Notes under the pieces: generated by a model
What the model was told of the DNA's origin: nothing
The model's database searches: none
What the model saw: the letters and a program-made list of their open reading frames with translations, nothing else
Program-made: the position numbers and the translations under genes
In this document: positions 1 through 8,938 of the stretch, one piece after another
Layout: the number at the start of each line of letters is the position of its first letter
Numbering within the stretch: position 1 is the stretch's first letter
From: a virus
Direction: 5' to 3' (one strand)
UHGV virus genome: UHGV-0385297
Length of the DNA stretch: 64,000 nucleotides

Positions 1-136
1 AATACATTGTATACAAACTGGCTGAACTTCTATGTATATCAGATGACACCGTATCTGCTGGATGATGGGGAGTAGGAAGTGGCTTAATTACTAGGGTTTT
101 CGATTATTTTAGTAATTACTCCTAAAATATTATATA

Positions 137-163
137 TGGCATATCTTGGCATAATATGGCATA
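137..163. repeat. 3 direct copies of TGGCATA at exact 10-bp phasing (137-143, 147-153, 157-163)
   Basis: Read directly: ATATGGCATA TCTTGGCATA ATATGGCATA. One helical turn apart, which suggests phased protein-binding sites. Confidence 0.6.
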
Positions 164-176
164 GTTTGGTGACTTG

Positions 177-276
177 ATGGGGTCAAAATGGGGTCAAAGA
201 AATAGTCAATGGGGTCAAAATATAATTGATGGGGTCAACAAAAATTTTGAGGTTTTGCACCTAACAATGGGGATAA
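177..276. repeat. 4 perfect copies of ATGGGGTCAA (177, 188, 209, 229) plus a degenerate copy ATGGGGATAA (267)
   Basis: Read directly. The spacings of 11, 21, 20 and 38 bp are close to multiples of 10.5. This looks like an iteron or operator array, or an integrase arm site. Confidence 0.6.
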
Positions 277-395
277 AATTATACTTGCTATAAATAAGGA
301 CATAATTATATATTGTGTGTTTATTTATCCACAAAATCATAAAAAAGAACATGTCCGGGATAAAATATTTCGGGCATTTCTTTTATATCTTGACC

Positions 396-438
396 AGAAC
401 AAACGTTTGTGCTAAAATAAAAGCAGAACAAACGTTCT
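396..438 (+). promoter_or_regulatory. Two Cheo-type LexA boxes upstream of lexA: AGAACAAACGTTTG (396-410, imperfect) and GAACAAACGTTC (426-437, perfect GAAC-N4-GTTC)
   Basis: The Gram-positive LexA operator consensus is CGAACN4GTTCG. The site at 426-437 is a perfect GAAC-N4-GTTC palindrome. Both sit just upstream of the lexA start, consistent with autoregulation. Confidence 0.65.
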
Positions 439-458
439 TTGGAAAGAGGACTTATATT

Positions 459-1070
459 ATGTTAAAAACAGATGTAAAAAAGGCAAAGGCACAAGAAATA
501 TTAAATTATATAAAGAGTAAACGAGATAGAAGTTATCCACCCTCAATACGTGAAATTGGTGCTGCAGTAGGATTAAAATCTCCATCTACTGTAAAAGGAT
601 ATTTAGATGATCTAATTAAAGCTGGTCTTATCCACCGTGATCCATCCATCCCAAGAGGAATAGAAGTTATAGATTCGAAAGAGTCACATCAGGGAATAAT
701 CCAAGTTCCTTTGATCGGTACTGTGGCAGCAGGTATACCTATCCTGGCTGTCCAGAATATAGAAGAATATATACCATTTTCTTCCAGCATGTTACATGGC
801 TTGGAACATTGCTATGCGCTCCGTGTAAAAGGTGAAAGTATGATCAATGCAGGTATCCTTCCAGACGATATTCTTTTGGTTAATCAGCAACCCACTGTAG
901 AGAATGGTGAGATAGCAGTAGCTTTAGTGGATGACTCTGCCACAGTAAAGCGTTTTTATAAAGAAAATGGATATTATCGTTTACAGCCTGAGAATGATAG
1001 CATGGATCCGATCATAGTCGATCATGTTGATATTCTTGGGAAAGTGATAGGGTTGTACCGCCGCATATAG
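459..1070 (+). CDS. lexA: LexA repressor (winged-helix N-terminus plus S24 peptidase C-terminus). The ORF-track start at 315 is an upstream extension. An ATG at 459 follows the RBS GGAAAGAGGA.
   Basis: N-terminal winged-helix region PPSIREIGAAVGLKSPSTVKGYLDDLIKAGLI. AG cleavage site in VAAGIP. Catalytic motifs RVKGESM (Ser) and VKRFYKENG (Lys). Length 203 aa, typical of LexA. Confidence 0.85.
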   Translation: MLKTDVKKAKAQEILNYIKSKRDRSYPPSIREIGAAVGLKSPSTVKGYLDDLIKAGLIHRDPSIPRGIEVIDSKESHQGIIQVPLIGTVAAGIPILAVQNIEEYIPFSSSMLHGLEHCYALRVKGESMINAGILPDDILLVNQQPTVENGEIAVALVDDSATVKRFYKENGYYRLQPENDSMDPIIVDHVDILGKVIGLYRRI

Positions 1071-1147
1071 TTCAGTTGCATATAGTCACTATAATGATAA
1101 TTGCCATGATTGTAAATCCATGTTAAAATAAACAAGGGTGAAATGAG

Positions 1148-1465
1148 ATGGTCTATGAATTAACATTACAGTCAGTACAAATTAAAACAACCATATTTGA
1201 AACACCGGCTAAACTGATCAACTACAAGGAATTATCTTGTGCGGTAGGAATGGCTCAAAAGCAGGCTGGGCTTCCTATGGATCAGCTAGTAGAGATCGGT
1301 ACAAATATGAAAGATTTTAAAGAAAAAAGCATGGTTTTATTTCAGAACAAGGATATCAACGAAAAAATAAGATTTGTAATCGAGAGTTACATTCTAAAAC
1401 CTGACGAAGTATTTGACCAGGACGCACTGATCACAATGCAGTTAGGTTACGATTCAATCAAATGA
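1148..1465 (+). CDS. hypothetical protein (105 aa) downstream of lexA
   Basis: ORF with RBS AAGGGTGA. No recognisable motif. Confidence 0.4.
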   Translation: MVYELTLQSVQIKTTIFETPAKLINYKELSCAVGMAQKQAGLPMDQLVEIGTNMKDFKEKSMVLFQNKDINEKIRFVIESYILKPDEVFDQDALITMQLGYDSIK

Positions 1466-1482
1466 GAAGAGGAGAAGTTATA

Positions 1483-1635
1483 ATGGAGAAAGGCTTATAT
1501 AGCTTAGATAATAACGTACTACAGGAAAGAATTAGCCGCTTAGAAAAGTTGGTTGATAAAGAAACTGACCCTGTAGCTTTGAAGACCTTACAGCTCGAAT
1601 TAGAGCGTCAAAAAGCCTTTGTAGAGAGTATATAG
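1483..1635 (+). CDS. small coiled-coil protein (50 aa; MEKGLYSLDNNVLQERISRLEKLVDK...)
   Basis: ATG at 1483 preceded by RBS GAAGAGGAGAAG. TAG stop at 1633. Not in the ORF track because it is under 60 aa. Confidence 0.35.
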   Translation: MEKGLYSLDNNVLQERISRLEKLVDKETDPVALKTLQLELERQKAFVESI

Positions 1636-1644
1636 TCTAATATC

Positions 1645-1687
1645 AAAAAATCGTAAAAAATAGGGATACCGTTAATTTGGTATCCCT
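1645..1687 (-). terminator. bidirectional intrinsic terminator (stem AGGGATACC / GGTATCCCT, 1662-1687). On the minus strand it is followed by a T-run (1645-1661 on the plus strand).
   Basis: Hairpin read directly. On the minus strand it lies immediately after the toxN C-terminal stop at 1694-1696. Confidence 0.6.
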
Positions 1688-1696
1688 AAAATTTTA

Positions 1697-2229
1697 TTCT
1701 TCTGTGTCGATTTCTTCTTTAATAAGTATATTCTTTTTTGATAACCATTCATCTAATCCTTTCTCAAGTTCTAAAAATTTACAACAAACATCATAGAACC
1801 GATTAGTAGGATTAGTTCCAAATGAATATACGGTTTCCGCTCTTTTACGAATACGATCTAAATTATTTTTACAAAAGTATATTCTGAGTCAACAAGATCA
1901 GTATAATTAGATCCTTTTGTTTTTCTTAACCAAGCAAGGTCTAATTTAGTTAAATCTGCATCATCAACTGGAATCATATAAGCAAAACGTAAACTTCCAA
2001 GGATACGAGATTGATTCCCTTTTGTATCTAAAGCTTCTTTTATTGGCATAGATGTAGCATTTTTAACTTTTTTGGAAGATACTGGAACATAATAATTTTT
2101 ATCATTTACTGTTATCAAAACACCAAAAAAGAATTTATCATGTTCATCATATTCATAATTAGGCACTTGCTTATCATACAACTTCAAATGTTTTAAATAA
2201 TCAAAATCAACTGTGTAAAAAGCACACAT
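1697..2229 (-). pseudogene. toxN: ToxN/AbiQ-family type III toxin (endoribonuclease), frame-shifted. Frame A is 1858..2229 (123 aa). The C-terminal 64 codons continue in another frame (1697..1888). The shift maps to the A5 run at 1866-1870.
   Basis: FYTVDFDYLKHLKLYDKQVPN...KFFFGVLITVNDKNYYVPVSSKK and MIPVDDADLTKLDL match my recollection of the ToxN/AbiQ N-terminal and central motifs. The second frame, RIRKRAETVYSFGTNPTNRFYDVCCKFLELEKGL..., resembles the ToxN C-terminus. The joined length of about 178 aa matches full-length ToxN. Confidence 0.6.
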
Positions 2230-2250
2230 ATACTATTTCTCCTTTGTATT

Positions 2251-2279
2251 AAAAAAGAGCGCCTGTAAACGCTCTTTTT
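2251..2279 (-). terminator. intrinsic terminator between the repeat array and toxN (stem AAAAAGAGCG / CGCTCTTTTT, with a U-run on the minus strand)
   Basis: Read directly. A terminator between antitoxin repeats and toxin is the canonical type III TA layout. Confidence 0.6.
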
Positions 2280-2357
2280 ATTAAACCCCTCTATTGTTCG
2301 CCGAGGAAGGCATCGCATTAAACCCCTCTATTGTTCGCCGAGGAAGGCATCGCATTA
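2280..2357 (-). ncRNA. toxI: candidate type III antitoxin RNA (toxI/antiQ-like): 2 perfect tandem 37-nt repeats (2280-2316, 2317-2353) plus a 4-nt partial third copy
   Basis: The unit ATTAAACCCCTCTATTGTTCGCCGAGGAAGGCATCGC is repeated exactly. The repeats lie between a promoter and the terminator upstream of toxN on the same strand. Confidence 0.55.
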
Positions 2358-2368
2358 ATTACACTTAT

Positions 2369-2397
2369 ATTATATGCGACAATACAAAGAAAATCAA
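2369..2397 (-). promoter_or_regulatory. sigma-A-type promoter on the minus strand: -35 TTGATT (2392-2397), 17-bp spacer, -10 TATAAT (2369-2374). It drives the toxI repeats and toxN.
   Basis: Read directly from the reverse complement. Confidence 0.5.
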
Positions 2398-2451
2398 TAG
2401 TAAATTATGTATTCATAAGAAATAAATAGCTGAGTGGCGATCCAGCATTTT

Positions 2452-2646
2452 CTACTCAAACCATATGGTTTTCTGGTGACAGCCGCCTGTTCTGTCCTTA
2501 TTTATTTCTATGATGTGTTTATTTTTAGATCTTTCTTCCAGAATCTCAGCATATAGTTTCTGTTTAGCATTTCTCAATTCTTCCACGGACATTTTAAGAT
2601 ATTCTGGTGGAATATGAACTTTGTCATTTTCACAAACACAGATCAT
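2452..2646 (-). CDS. hypothetical protein (64 aa)
   Basis: ORF downstream of the lysis genes. No motif found. Confidence 0.3.
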   Translation of the reverse strand: MICVCENDKVHIPPEYLKMSVEELRNAKQKLYAEILEERSKNKHIIEINKDRTGGCHQKTIWFE

Positions 2647-7100: not shown

Positions 7101-8878
7101 GCTGCACCACGATACTTAATTGACTTTGCTCCGGTACCATTTACGTTCAATGTAGGGTTAGCGGCAGTATTTGTAACGGTGAACTTTACTGCGACCTTTG
7201 CACCTGTAGCAAGATTAAAACCATTTAAGGTTACTGTTTTAGCAGCAGTAGCGGCAGCTGTTGAACATGTTCCATAATGAGTGATGTCAGCAGATCCATC
7301 GAAGTTTACACCGTCTACTTTGCGAATAGTCTGTAATTTTGTAGCTGAACCTGCATTACCTGATACATTAGTAGTGAGCATCTGTGTATTTGGTGTGTAT
7401 TTTAAATTATCACTGGATGCTCTTTTTGTCTCATCAGTTGAATTAGAGAACCAGACATGACGGGCTGCACCATCAGATGCAGTTCCGCTATTTTCTACAG
7501 CAGATGCCAGTGTAGCTTTGTTGGCAGTTGTTGCAGTGGTAGCGCTGTCAGCCTTGGTAGCAGATGTGGCTTTAGTTGCTGTATCGGCGTTACCTTTAAA
7601 ATTATTAGCATAGACAGCGTTCCATTTATGGCTAGAGTCTCCTAAATTAATCACATTAGATTGGTGTGGATACACATTTCCATATAATTCTCCGCCACCT
7701 TTATTTAGAACAGTGCCTTCAAGTCCTCCGACTAAACCTGTAATGGCAATCTGGGTGATAGCAGTCCACTCGGTATTATCATTACGATTATAAAAACTTA
7801 GTCTGATGGATCTTTTCTTGCCGTCCATACCTTTATGTGGATAAATTGTAACTACTGAACCACATGCACCAGAAATACTACCTTCTGTCTGCCAGTTCTC
7901 TTTATTGACATCACCTGCTTCAACAAGTAAGTCTCGAACCGTTTGTCCAGATGATCTAAAATAAATTGAATATCCAGTTTCATAATCTGCTGTTTCAGGC
8001 AATACAACTTCTACTTGAATCAGAATTTTTCGCAAGATGGCGCAACCTGAATATGTGTTTGTTGACCTCCTATAATTATCATACCAAATACTAGGATTCT
8101 CCAATGGATTTTTTCCAGTATTATCGGACAAGGCTTTAAACAATAAGTATGAATGTATATTTCCGTTATTCAACAATACAACAAAATCACCTTTTTTATA
8201 TTGCTTCGTTGAATCCCACGCAATTTGTTTTATATCGCAATAATCTTGAATACTTTCAAATCGAAGATATGTACTAGATTTGCCATCGAACAGTTGTTCA
8301 ATTGAACCTTGGTATATTGGTAATTCAAATCCATCAAATTTTACGCAACCTGAACCACCACGATGAATCGCATAACCCATACCGTTAATGCTTGGATTGA
8401 CAGAAATAGAATCATCAGAGTTTATAATAGAATTTATACCATTTTTAACTCTATTGATGACTTTTGTATTGTCGGTTACTGTATTTTTCAGCAGATTGAA
8501 ATCTTCAATTTTGGTGTATACCGAATTTGCTTTTGATTTAATATACTCCCAAAGTGCAGACATAGGACGGCGTTGGTAAGTTGTGGTGGTTGTTCCACCA
8601 CCTACATATTGTGATATATAATAATCATTATCTTTCGGAATAGAACCATTTGCATTTAACTTATTAATCATTTCGCTTAAATCATGTTCATGCCAAGCTG
8701 GTTTTGCCACATCATATTCCAAATCCGCCCAATGAGCTGTACCATCACCTGTCTTAGTCTGTCTTATATCAGAAGAGTAAGCAATCTCACCTTTAAGCAG
8801 AATAGGATTAGCATTAGCCCATTCCGCATCAGTTTTATAGGCATGTCGCACCCTTGCTTTTAAAATATTGTCTGCCAT
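4178..8878 (-). CDS. tail fibre / receptor-binding protein (1566 aa), paralogous in part to the upstream 1105-aa fibre
   Basis: Thr/Ser/Gly-rich fibrous protein. It shares a module of about 110 aa with 8946..12263 (VDGVNFDG...KFTVTNTAA.PTLNVNGTGAK.IKYR...DGTDY..GDINTDTNTTY). Its C-terminal domain of about 90 aa is shared with 26879..27799 (...QKAYNKAF...GLKGV). Confidence 0.7.
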   Translation of the reverse strand: MADNILKARVRHAYKTDAEWANANPILLKGEIAYSSDIRQTKTGDGTAHWADLEYDVAKPAWHEHDLSEMINKLNANGSIPKDNDYYISQYVGGGTTTTTYQRRPMSALWEYIKSKANSVYTKIEDFNLLKNTVTDNTKVINRVKNGINSIINSDDSISVNPSINGMGYAIHRGGSGCVKFDGFELPIYQGSIEQLFDGKSSTYLRFESIQDYCDIKQIAWDSTKQYKKGDFVVLLNNGNIHSYLLFKALSDNTGKNPLENPSIWYDNYRRSTNTYSGCAILRKILIQVEVVLPETADYETGYSIYFRSSGQTVRDLLVEAGDVNKENWQTEGSISGACGSVVTIYPHKGMDGKKRSIRLSFYNRNDNTEWTAITQIAITGLVGGLEGTVLNKGGGELYGNVYPHQSNVINLGDSSHKWNAVYANNFKGNADTATKATSATKADSATTATTANKATLASAVENSGTASDGAARHVWFSNSTDETKRASSDNLKYTPNTQMLTTNVSGNAGSATKLQTIRKVDGVNFDGSADITHYGTCSTAAATAAKTVTLNGFNLATGAKVAVKFTVTNTAANPTLNVNGTGAKSIKYRGAAISTDALAANRIYEFIYDGTDYALVGDINTDTNTTYGNMTGATTSAAGKAGLVPAPVAGAATRYLRSDGTWQVPPDTTYSDATQSAHGLMSVNDKKKLDGIAEGANKITVDSVMSSSSTNPVQNKIVQAALDTKAAKDKGALFVVGTHTTTTNAWTGKLSGVSALYDGLLIDYWVPFTGTSAGDTLNLTLDDGTTTGAKNMYYMGTTRLTTHYSTGYVIRLVYRTAAVISGTTYSGWWNVSSFDSTNTTDISLGNGRIYAGTNGIWRYTLVALDSTGKWQSFVTSSSTGTSKTINTSTKFRLPATIYYYGANNDATNGNLVPSTYSVWQIRCIADLRYSTNCTTTQFTANAPIYLECTLSSDRYFQVTSTCITQTFTKGKYYIYLGNTYSTAYQLCLTSQHPVYYYDGTNLVDYVYSLLDNKSDVGHTHNYAGSSSAGGVANSATKLATARNIAANDDYIMNFNFDGSGNVSTQLRAYNAIIAVANANNYPYHRFAKLDTLTDSYQDRVTNLLITQDFNGGGWGICRIVLRTNNQSNKDLSLASVEWLVRYDLAADSVQIGLYTKDGSTYADAFFKTVGTYWSTTIRNLGSGSRGNIGRTWTFINSSETNNTTTTDKKTSYEVYTSVADAGTKLHNQAYTSTITGVDVGTVKYANTSGSATSAEKATKDSANQQINTTYIKGLSASGKTITYTKGDNKTGTATISGFVPMEGTTKDNPMTGAIIQSSTDNGNTYLAGYTPSGSRLITSSSSGTRTTELTPSSFTTNLETGDAETSGALDVTFYPQKNKQMIYLGGSSSDWIIRGVGTPVQDGDAVNKNYIDSTLENWSNDLVEELQGLIPVYGTWEDTPVTGNIVFNGKATVTGVKEPSSDSDVATKGYVDRQNSIKSVTLTAAGWTGTTAPYTQAVKVDGITEDDNPVMVSMLAAGATPDTQKAYNKAFGIICSGTGTTANDRVRFSVYSKPAIDITVGLKGV

Positions 8879-8902
8879 TTATATTCTCCTTTCACATTAA
8901 TT

Positions 8903-8938
8903 GAAAAATCTCCGACAAGCTTTGACTCTCATCGGAGA
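8903..8938 (-). terminator. intrinsic terminator between the two fibre genes (stem TCTCCGA / TCGGAGA, followed by a T-run on the minus strand)
   Basis: Read directly. It is followed by RBS GAAAGGAGAA and the start of the 1566-aa gene. Confidence 0.5.

Follow-up and report, generated by a model that had tools for sequence, protein, structure and literature searches.

A probable ToxIN-family type III toxin-antitoxin cassette, with toxN disrupted as sequenced, beside lexA in a prophage-like block

Does the DNA at positions 1645-2397 of the virus genome UHGV-0385297 encode a complete type III toxin-antitoxin system, and is its toxin gene, toxN, genuinely broken? The window referred to throughout is the whole stretch analysed, 64,000 nucleotides (nt) of that genome numbered from its first letter. 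An earlier note on the same letters had read the locus as a complete ToxIN/AbiQ-like type III system with a frameshifted toxN. This reading was borne out by a match to the ToxN family (PF13958), by the PADLOC assignment to AbiQ, by solved structures and by an architecture conserved in relatives. Judged by its likeness to characterised systems, the locus is very probably a ToxIN-family (ToxN/AbiQ) type III toxin-antitoxin and abortive-infection cassette, with toxN disrupted as sequenced. In annotation it should be named a ToxIN-family type III toxin-antitoxin cassette with disrupted toxN, and the toxI array and terminator, both of which gene callers overlook, deserve marking. Compared loci and contigs are labelled with L-numbers, and relative proteins with P-numbers.

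Read along the minus strand from 2397 to 1661, the order is promoter, toxI array, terminator, ribosome-binding site, split toxN and bidirectional terminator. All parts of the layout described in the earlier note (promoter, 2.1 copies of a 37-nt repeat, terminator, toxN and bidirectional terminator) were located on that strand. The features of the cassette and its neighbour are as follows.

2369-2397, minus strand: predicted cassette promoter, with -35 box TTGATT (2392-2397), 17-nt spacer and -10 box TATAAT (2369-2374)
2280-2358, minus strand: putative toxI antitoxin array, with 37-nt units at 2322-2358 and 2285-2321 (TTAATGCGATGCCTTCCTCGGCGAACAATAGAGGGGT) and a closing TTAAT at 2280-2284
2251-2279, minus strand: predicted toxI/toxN intrinsic terminator or attenuator (AAAAAGAGCGTTTACAGGCGCTCTTTTTT), hairpin and U-tract
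2227-2245, minus strand: toxN ribosome-binding site AAAGGAG and ATG (2229-2227), kept in L001-L004
1858-2229, minus strand: toxN N-terminal frame of 123 amino acids, with 119 native residues, then VKII and TAG (1858-1860)
1873-1876, minus strand: toxN frameshift site, a sense T4 against T5 in intact near-identical alleles, at codons 119/120 (Phe-Cys)
1694-1872, minus strand: toxN C-terminal part in the -1 frame, K121 to E178, with TAA at 1694-1696
1661-1688, no strand assigned: predicted bidirectional terminator of toxN and a convergent 57-amino-acid gene, left edge of the cassette polymorphism
2421-2506, minus strand: skipping-rope RNA (Rfam RF02924), a neighbour outside the toxin-antitoxin module; its 3' hairpin is the right edge of the polymorphism

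The toxin was identified from its joined reading frames. The 123-residue open reading frame (ORF; 1858-2229, minus strand) continues in a second frame to a TAA at 1694-1696, where the C-terminus had been said to stop, and the joined product is exactly 178 amino acids long. A hidden Markov model (HMM) search with this translation, put forward earlier as a check on the locus, matched PF13958 (ToxN_toxin) end to end (positions 3-159 of 159, 128.5 bits against a cut-off of 25, E 3.5e-37); the N-terminal fragment covered positions 3-117 (E 6.5e-28) and the C-terminal fragment 119-159. The joined product was called AbiQ by PADLOC (118.7 bits), and its closest solved relatives by sequence were 4ATO (Bacillus thuringiensis ToxN, E 1.7e-18), 7D8O, 2XD0 and 4GLK. 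The structural comparison was made with a model of P0001, a relative 93% identical to the window protein (predicted local distance difference test score, pLDDT, 86; predicted template modelling score 0.82), which superposed on 4ATO, 7D8O, 2XD0 and 4GLK with template modelling (TM) scores of 0.67-0.80 and on CptN with 0.53; the family call is that of the joined, repaired reading. Because of the Pfam and structure matches, the toxin was placed in the toxIN family and not in cptIN or tenpIN.

These two other families share the general type III logic of a repeat RNA antitoxin, a terminator and an endoribonuclease toxin, and their repeats measure 40-48 nt (cptIN) and 39-57 nt (tenpIN) (PMC3401426). 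Membership of CptIN was rejected on the Foldseek comparison with 4RMO (TM 0.53, E 0.18) and on the 37-nt repeat, which falls below the cptIN range. TenpIN was rejected with ToxN_toxin as the sole significant Pfam family and with the repeat again too short; the Pfam scan, read out to E values of 1, contained neither a CptN nor a TenpN family.

The catalytic residues of ToxN-Ec/Pa are Lys33, Thr52, Ser53 and Lys55 (PMC8860590), and AbiQ carries a serine (Ser51) at the first Thr/Ser position (PMC5086642). Alignment to 2XD0 and 7D8O placed K32, S51, S52 and K53 of the window protein at the catalytic positions, with a serine at the first of the Ser/Thr positions, as in AbiQ; K32, S51 and S52 are invariant in 11 relatives. 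Members of the 90% cluster carry the NCBI label 'Toxin ToxN, type III toxin-antitoxin system [Caudoviricetes sp.]'. The nearest annotated plasmid and phage ToxN relatives are 37-38% identical, one relative was found in IMG/VR, and the scan of species-representative genomes returned relatives of 26-32% identity only, with an unrelated 41-nt repeat. The cassette DNA had no match among GenBank phage records. In three Enterococcus metagenome-assembled genomes (MAGs; L007, L008 and L009) a ToxN 26-32% identical to that of the window was seen in a like design of promoter, repeats and terminator; the repeat there is an unrelated 41-nt unit in 2.2 copies, flanked by GUUAAAGGA.

Upstream of toxN, the sigma-A-type promoter (TTGATT, 17 bp, TATAAT) named in the earlier note is present at 2397-2369 and is the best promoter match of the region (10/12). 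A promoter stands at the equal position in relatives with unrelated flanks (TTGCAT-17-TATAAT in L014, TTGACA-17-TATTAT in L018), and this stretch is absent from toxIN-less alleles. The intrinsic terminator expected between the repeats and toxN was found at 2251-2279 as a hairpin with a U-tract (-13.6 kcal/mol, z -5.45); 0 of 200 shuffles folded equally well. A simple pattern scan had overlooked it, the stem extension having consumed the T-run. Hairpin and U-tract are retained with other stem sequences (GAGGGTAT/ATACCCT in L014, GGACG/CGTCC in L018, GGGC/GCCC in L019), and both promoter and terminator are conserved in position and divergent in sequence in these three loci. The two were assigned as predicted elements of the cassette. 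The bidirectional terminator proposed just past the second-frame stop was likewise detected, on both strands, at 1661-1688 (-16.6 kcal/mol, z -5.06).

The array was recovered by Tandem Repeats Finder as 2.1 copies of a 37-nt repeat at 100% identity (2280-2358), in agreement with the exact repeat described earlier. Published toxIN arrays have repeats of 31-62 nt in 1.9-5.6 copies (PMC3401426, Table 2); repeat length and copy number both lie within these ranges, and the count is plausible for toxI, as had been supposed. A homologous 37-nt array precedes toxN in every relative examined, and the order of promoter, array, terminator and toxN is kept down to 52% toxin identity. Upstream of toxN relatives of 52-93% identity the repeat core (GCCTTCCTCGGC...AATAGAGG) and the unit core (GCCUUCCUCGGC...AAUAGAGG) are invariant, in settings as diverse as other prophages, a MobA/ArdC element and a DUF5662/SIR2 neighbourhood.

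The published ToxI template consists of two nested stems of 3-4 bp and a long third loop (PMC3401426), and each 37-nt unit is predicted to fit it. The proposed pseudoknot stems (GCC/GGC and CCUC/GAGG) pair in all 91 cells, compared with 29-59% after sliding of the partners, and in 13 of 13 distinct units. A UAAU stands at every full unit and at either end of each array. Cleavage by characterised ToxN enzymes falls in single-stranded linkers that contain A (AA/AU, GAA/AU and A/AAAA; PMC5086642, PMC8860590), and because of this known linker cutting and the UAAU at unit and array edges, UAAU is taken as a likely ToxN processing site. The '2.1 copies' would then amount to two releasable units and a closing site. 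Other results limit this account of the RNA. No compensatory changes were found in the pseudoknot stems (0, with only 2 one-sided changes); as the stems are nearly invariant, covariation speaks neither for nor against the fold. The nested minimum free energy of single units was no better than that of shuffles. The cut site is suggested by edge conservation, and UAAU is less A-rich than the published sites of characterised ToxN. A search of Rfam returned no known antitoxin RNA family at the repeats, and overlapping small RNA matches were at chance level only.

Near-identical loci carry arrays of 1, 2, 3 and at least 5 units, and arrays in the P0006 clade range from 1 to 5. Copy-number variation from 1 to at least 5 was noted among the toxI arrays of L025-L032, L048-L057, L010 and L019-L024. 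Several arrays hold runs of N or scaffold gaps or end a contig, and short-read copy numbers are unreliable; there is a hint that the variation is real, and part of it may be assembly collapse. One 36-nt spacing in the L026 array is probably an error.

Selection was estimated on both halves of the system. The ratio of nonsynonymous to synonymous substitution rates (dN/dS) of intact toxN is 0.07-0.17 in the clade, with the parts before and after codon 120 both constrained, and intact toxN thus appears to be under purifying selection. From the -35 box to the ATG, 5 of 168 nt differ between the window and L001, whereas the synonymous rate (dS) in the adjoining toxN is 0.53; the non-coding antitoxin region appears to be conserved at least 10 times more strongly than silent toxN sites. 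The single repeat difference (C/T) is carried by all copies of each array, which argues for concerted evolution of the array.

By analogy with characterised systems, the consensus promoter would drive two full toxI units, with the ToxN-fold gene and its own ribosome-binding site beyond the terminator, which would hold toxI in excess over toxN. ToxN would cleave the precursor at the single-stranded UAAU linkers flanking each full unit, and each 37-nt pseudoknot (GCC/GGC and CCUC/GAGG) would bridge ToxN monomers into a closed, inactive complex. On phage infection, host transcription would halt, the labile toxI RNA would decay, and ToxN would be freed; the freed toxin would cut RNA and abort the infection, and sister lysogens would be protected. 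Toxicity of ToxN, processing of the units, neutralisation and abortive infection are all predicted, with indirect support from the constraint on toxN and toxI and from the UAAU edges. Nothing in the anatomy of the cassette appears to depart from the known type III mechanism, here carried over by homology, and what is known of how type III systems function is left unchanged by it.

The window toxIN is a further member of the known toxIN family. With the characterised systems (pAW63 of B. thuringiensis, 4ATO; Pectobacterium atrosepticum, 2XD0/2XDD; Escherichia coli, 7D8O; Lactococcus lactis AbiQ/antiQ, 4GLK) it shares toxin fold and family, the Ser/Thr-Ser-Lys catalytic motif, the operon order of promoter, tandem repeats, terminator and toxin, and a repeat length of 34-37 nt. 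Its 2-3 copies resemble those of ToxI-Bt (2.9) and antiQ (2.8) (PMC5086642), and its repeat is predicted to fit the ToxI template with a third loop of 8 nt, the 'group II' of Blower (PMC3401426). In contrast, structural-alignment identity between the solved toxins and the window clade is 21-26% only, the repeat sequence is unrelated to the ToxI RNAs of those systems, the predicted loop between stems 2a and 1b has 0 nt instead of the usual 1-2 nt, and the cassette, located at the end of a prophage and not on a plasmid, has a frameshifted toxin.

Where does the reading frame break? The earlier note had placed the break at a sense-strand A5 homopolymer (plus-strand T5, 1866-1870). That run is of equal length in every intact relative, and the break was found in the adjoining T-run instead. 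Intact near-identical alleles read ACT TTT TGT AAA AAT where the window reads ACTTTTGTAAAAAT, that is, GAATATAC-TTTTT-GTAAAAAT against GAATATAC-TTTT-GTAAAAAT. One T has been lost from a sense T5, and the plus strand has A4 at 1873-1876 against A5 in intact alleles. The toxN frame is uninterrupted in the near-identical loci L025-L032; in the window it ends at 123 amino acids.

The frameshift destroys Cys120, a residue invariant in 11 relatives, down to 35% identity. Mapped on the P0001 model, the truncation costs the protein the last part of helix 107-122 together with helices 124-139 and 152-177 in full. The lost segment is the best-predicted part of the model (pLDDT 95-97) and includes positions that align with residues through which E. 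coli ToxN contacts RNA (Arg122, aligned with K121; N123, nearly invariant). With 119 native residues left and two and a half helices gone, the toxin half is predicted from this model to be disabled as sequenced.

It is very unlikely that the 123-residue fragment keeps partial activity, as a Kid/MazF-like ribonuclease core or as a dominant-negative ToxI binder. The beta-core and the catalytic equivalents do lie within residues 1-95, and several type III loci in which a full array goes with an uncharacterised short toxin have been listed (PMC3401426). The segment lost from the fragment is, however, confidently structured (pLDDT 95-97), is under purifying selection (w about 0.2) and includes the residues aligned to E. 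coli ToxN RNA contacts; moreover, a toxic yet non-neutralisable product would kill. A search of the literature for truncated forms of ToxN gave no relevant result. Among gut Lachnospiraceae and Ruminococcus, several strains have toxIN loci according to Blower et al. (2012; PMC3401426); these share family and host group with the window locus, and some of them have complete repeats and terminators but shortened toxins. The window differs from them in that its lesion was traced to one base and the intact parent allele is known.

Nor does the site look like a place where ribosomes recover the frame, an option that the earlier note had raised as a slippery homopolymer. Slippage by -1 on U UUU G, with re-pairing of tRNA-Phe, would make low-level full-length ToxN from a regulatory site, and a -1 shift after UUU in ACU UUU GUA does yield UGU AAA AAU, the wild-type Phe-Cys-Lys frame. 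The frameshift occurs in no relative, though; all 178-residue alleles are in frame with T5 or with TTC TGT, and U UUU G falls outside the canonical X XXY YYZ heptamer. A stimulatory structure downstream was not seen, though no search aimed at one was made. Slippage at this site is most improbable. Because all relatives are in frame, a programmed slippery site is unsupported, and programmed frameshifting was rejected as not conserved.

With the toxin predicted to be disabled as sequenced, the age and authenticity of the lesion had to be weighed. The 731-nt cassette (1690-2420) differs by a single base from each of L025, L027 and L029, independent metagenome contigs to which it is otherwise 100% identical, and the repaired 178-residue product is identical to the intact protein P0076, listed in 67 collection blocks. 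From the identity of the cassette to intact alleles it follows that the break would be either a very recent mutation or a homopolymer consensus error. A sequencing or assembly error, in which case the organism's toxIN would be intact, working and identical to the common allele, is a real possibility but the less probable one. It would agree with the otherwise complete identity over 731 nt and with a lesion that is a one-base change of homopolymer length. Other NCBI assemblies of the locus also carry many indel errors nearby: in L026 and L030 (GCA_027494435.1 and GCA_041324515.1) the neighbouring genes are heavily split while toxN is intact.

Elsewhere in the window such errors are not apparent, which speaks against the error and somewhat favours a genuine mutation. 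No other gene is split, and the large ORFs (2391, 1797, 1566 and 1463 amino acids; 7.2, 5.4, 4.7 and 4.4 kb) are whole. The toxN indel is the sole coding indel in 5086 aligned nt at 99% identity, and real toxN frameshift alleles occur in independent short-read assemblies. Against a genuine mutation it counts that the truncated 123-residue product is on record from a single NCBI contig and that an exact look-up on the contigs of other assemblies found none. Three non-coding differences from the closest assemblies upstream of lexA, 1-nt indels near 129, 216 and 275 (the latter two in A-runs), were used as a further check on the base-calling of the window. Of the window's three variants, 2 occur in no other fetched locus, but the closest host-side lineage is only 98.6% identical, too distant for the check to point either way. 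Window positions 1-460 upstream of lexA, especially 134-238, hold short tandem repeats with periods of 10, 11 and 20, of the ATGGGGTCAAA type. The genes split in L026 and L030 are those for a ligase, a pseudouridine synthase, an amidase and a tail fibre, in the pattern of uncorrected long reads.

Loss of the toxin with retention of the antitoxin is the expected decay route of a toxin-antitoxin pair, and for this reason a genuine frameshift in the window would be unsurprising. Other broken forms of toxN were found in the 90% cluster, including proteins P0079/P0082, P0081 and P0085. In L033/L053 (one contig) and L034 a C is lost from AAATTCTTTTTTGG, giving T8 and a split into 37 and 141 amino acids; this allele occurs in MEGAHIT and Logan assemblies of different samples, both short-read. 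In L055 an A6 near the 3' end of toxN has become A7, with a 170-residue product, seen in two protein backgrounds.

Deletions were found as well. The toxIN-less alleles retain one diverged toxI unit (GCGAUGCCUAUCUUCGGCGGAUAAUAGAGG) without promoter or UAAU flanks. This solo unit (GCGATGCCTATCTTCGGCGGATAATAGAGG, with one variant GGT) is found on the sense strand in L035-L038, L040, L041, L043, L049 and L062, with the skipping-rope RNA on one side and the shared terminator on the other; L078 has two decaying toxI units (8850-8910). A pattern scan of metagenomes gave eight contigs with an L018-like cassette from which units 2-3, the terminator and, except for 26 nt, toxN have been lost. Orphan toxI loci of this kind, beside a MobA/MobL relaxase, are L058, L060, L061, L069, L070, L072, L075 and L080 (for example L080 6352-6700); they retain the promoter and 1.1 unit. 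Alignment of six of these orphan loci showed all six to be collinear with the intact toxIN of L018 to either side of one shared deletion junction (L018 315/959). In one orphan sub-lineage the -10 box is degraded from TATTAT to TACTAC. The ToxN HMM found no toxin in any frame of the orphan loci, and found it in every canonical locus. A terminator is also listed after the promoter and 1.1 unit of the orphan loci. Two further hits of the scan, L073 and L079, look like chance matches and were set aside.

By this comparison of alleles, toxN appears to have been lost repeatedly in the clade, by frameshifts and by deletions. The loci form a natural series for one gut Lachnospiraceae toxIN clade, from intact alleles through three independent homopolymer frameshifts to two precise toxN deletions that leave toxI, with presence/absence polymorphism at a prophage end, and offer a tractable example of a prophage that carries an abortive-infection module and of how such modules decay.

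Retained toxI invites a comparison with phage PhiTE, whose repeats mimic host ToxI and whose repeat expansion was shown experimentally to defeat ToxIN (PMC3475682). Like the PhiTE pseudo-ToxI, the toxIN-less sister prophages have a ToxI-like unit without toxN, in a phage genome, downstream of late genes. The range of 1 to at least 5 array copies between near-identical loci is a further likeness, the counts being from short reads and some arrays having scaffold gaps. The solo unit differs in looking like a decay remnant, with no promoter and no UAAU flanks, as do the two decaying units of L078.

With toxN dead, the window locus could on this precedent have become a toxI-only decoy against related ToxN, in an anti-addiction or anti-abortive-infection role. 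The promoter, array and terminator of the window are untouched, and toxI without toxN recurs: as the prophage solo unit, as promoter and 1.1 unit beside MobA, and as a 2.1-unit array with a perfect TTGACA-17-TATAAT promoter. Such a role is nevertheless quite unlikely. Retention of the antitoxin after loss of the toxin is the neutral decay expected for any toxin-antitoxin pair, the prophage solo unit has neither promoter nor UAAU flanks, and one orphan sub-lineage has the altered -10 box (TACTAC). Divergence of the orphan unit (5 of 37 nt) is similar to that of its flanks (about 13%), and the window lesion is too recent for selection on a new role. That some orphan toxI units are kept by gut mobile elements as decoys against competitors' ToxN, with the skipping-rope RNA marking exchange points of defence cassettes, is an unlikely extension of the same idea.

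What kind of element carries the cassette? The flanking housekeeping proteins are identical to ones named in Clostridium sp. AM22-11AC and Enterocloster sp. MAGs, and for this reason the host is taken to be, in all likelihood, a Clostridia bacterium of Lachnospiraceae type from the human gut. Beyond 1858, all sizeable genes up to the last position of the window lie on the minus strand and resemble phage genes (amidase, tail fibres and ORFs of very large size). The cassette appears to be an accessory module in a large prophage-like block beside lexA, at the end that holds the lysis genes, and it is considered accessory because it is present or absent among otherwise near-identical prophages. 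In 7 of 10 distinct contexts of the DUF3837 gene the phage block is found without toxIN. On the left the polymorphism is bounded by the bidirectional terminator (about 1696), on the right by the skipping-rope RNA with its 3' hairpin (about 2417); the terminator is common to filled and toxIN-less alleles, and the indel starts at about 1696. Filled and toxIN-less alleles are parted by two separate indels and not by one simple deletion.

Of the earlier proposal of a moron at the edge of the late region next to host lexA, the moron part agrees with this presence/absence polymorphism. The flank is a putative host/prophage junction: no prophage-free lexA-DUF3837 locus was found in 2 x 24 contigs, 20 of 20 listed contexts carry the phage block, and the cassette may lie inside the prophage or just outside its attachment site. 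The block may be fixed in the species, or sampling may be biased towards lysogens. The host flank (window 1-1700, with lexA and DUF3837) is at most 98.6% identical to the fetched loci, and the cassette (1690-2420) is 100% identical to several of them. On these sequences, spread or recombination of the cassette or the phage seems to be more recent than the divergence of the flank. In L038 and L056 another mobile element (integrase, Tn916-type Xis, SH3/3D protein and dUTPase) lies upstream of lexA in place of metA; lexA in such strains has mobile DNA on both sides.

Phage-borne toxIN has scarcely been described. One case, Clostridium phage D-1873 (printed 'D-783'), was given by Blower et al. in 2012 (PMC3401426), and according to a 2025 survey that case was the only type III system reported in phages until the survey's own tenpIN matches. 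The window adds a prophage example.

The right edge of the polymorphism is occupied by the skipping-rope RNA RF02924 (2421-2506, minus strand; 45 bits against a gathering score of 36.7). It overlaps the 3' end of a 64-amino-acid late gene and ends 24 nt before the toxI -35 box. It is kept in filled and toxIN-less alleles, and identity between them resumes at its 3' end. Skipping-rope RNA has been reported to associate with particular neighbouring genes (PMC5737381), and a link to toxI cassettes may exist here, as far as the arrangement of these loci goes. The toxIN contexts L014, L018, L019, L076 and L080 are without it. It was also seen at L001 5680-5765, L040 5582-5667, L062 2726-2811 and L078 8740-8825, and in an unrelated locus at L064 4947-5026 and 7938-8018 (both minus strand), L066 985-1064 and L071 2019-2099. 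In L064, L066 and L071 it is followed on the same strand, about 200 nt downstream, by an orphan 2.1-unit toxI-type array with a perfect TTGACA-17-TATAAT promoter and without toxN, and the L064-type locus is a second independent adjacency of skipping-rope RNA and toxI. The second copy in L064 stands upstream of a gene pair encoding an AAA_21 ATPase and a Toprim/DUF4276-like protein.

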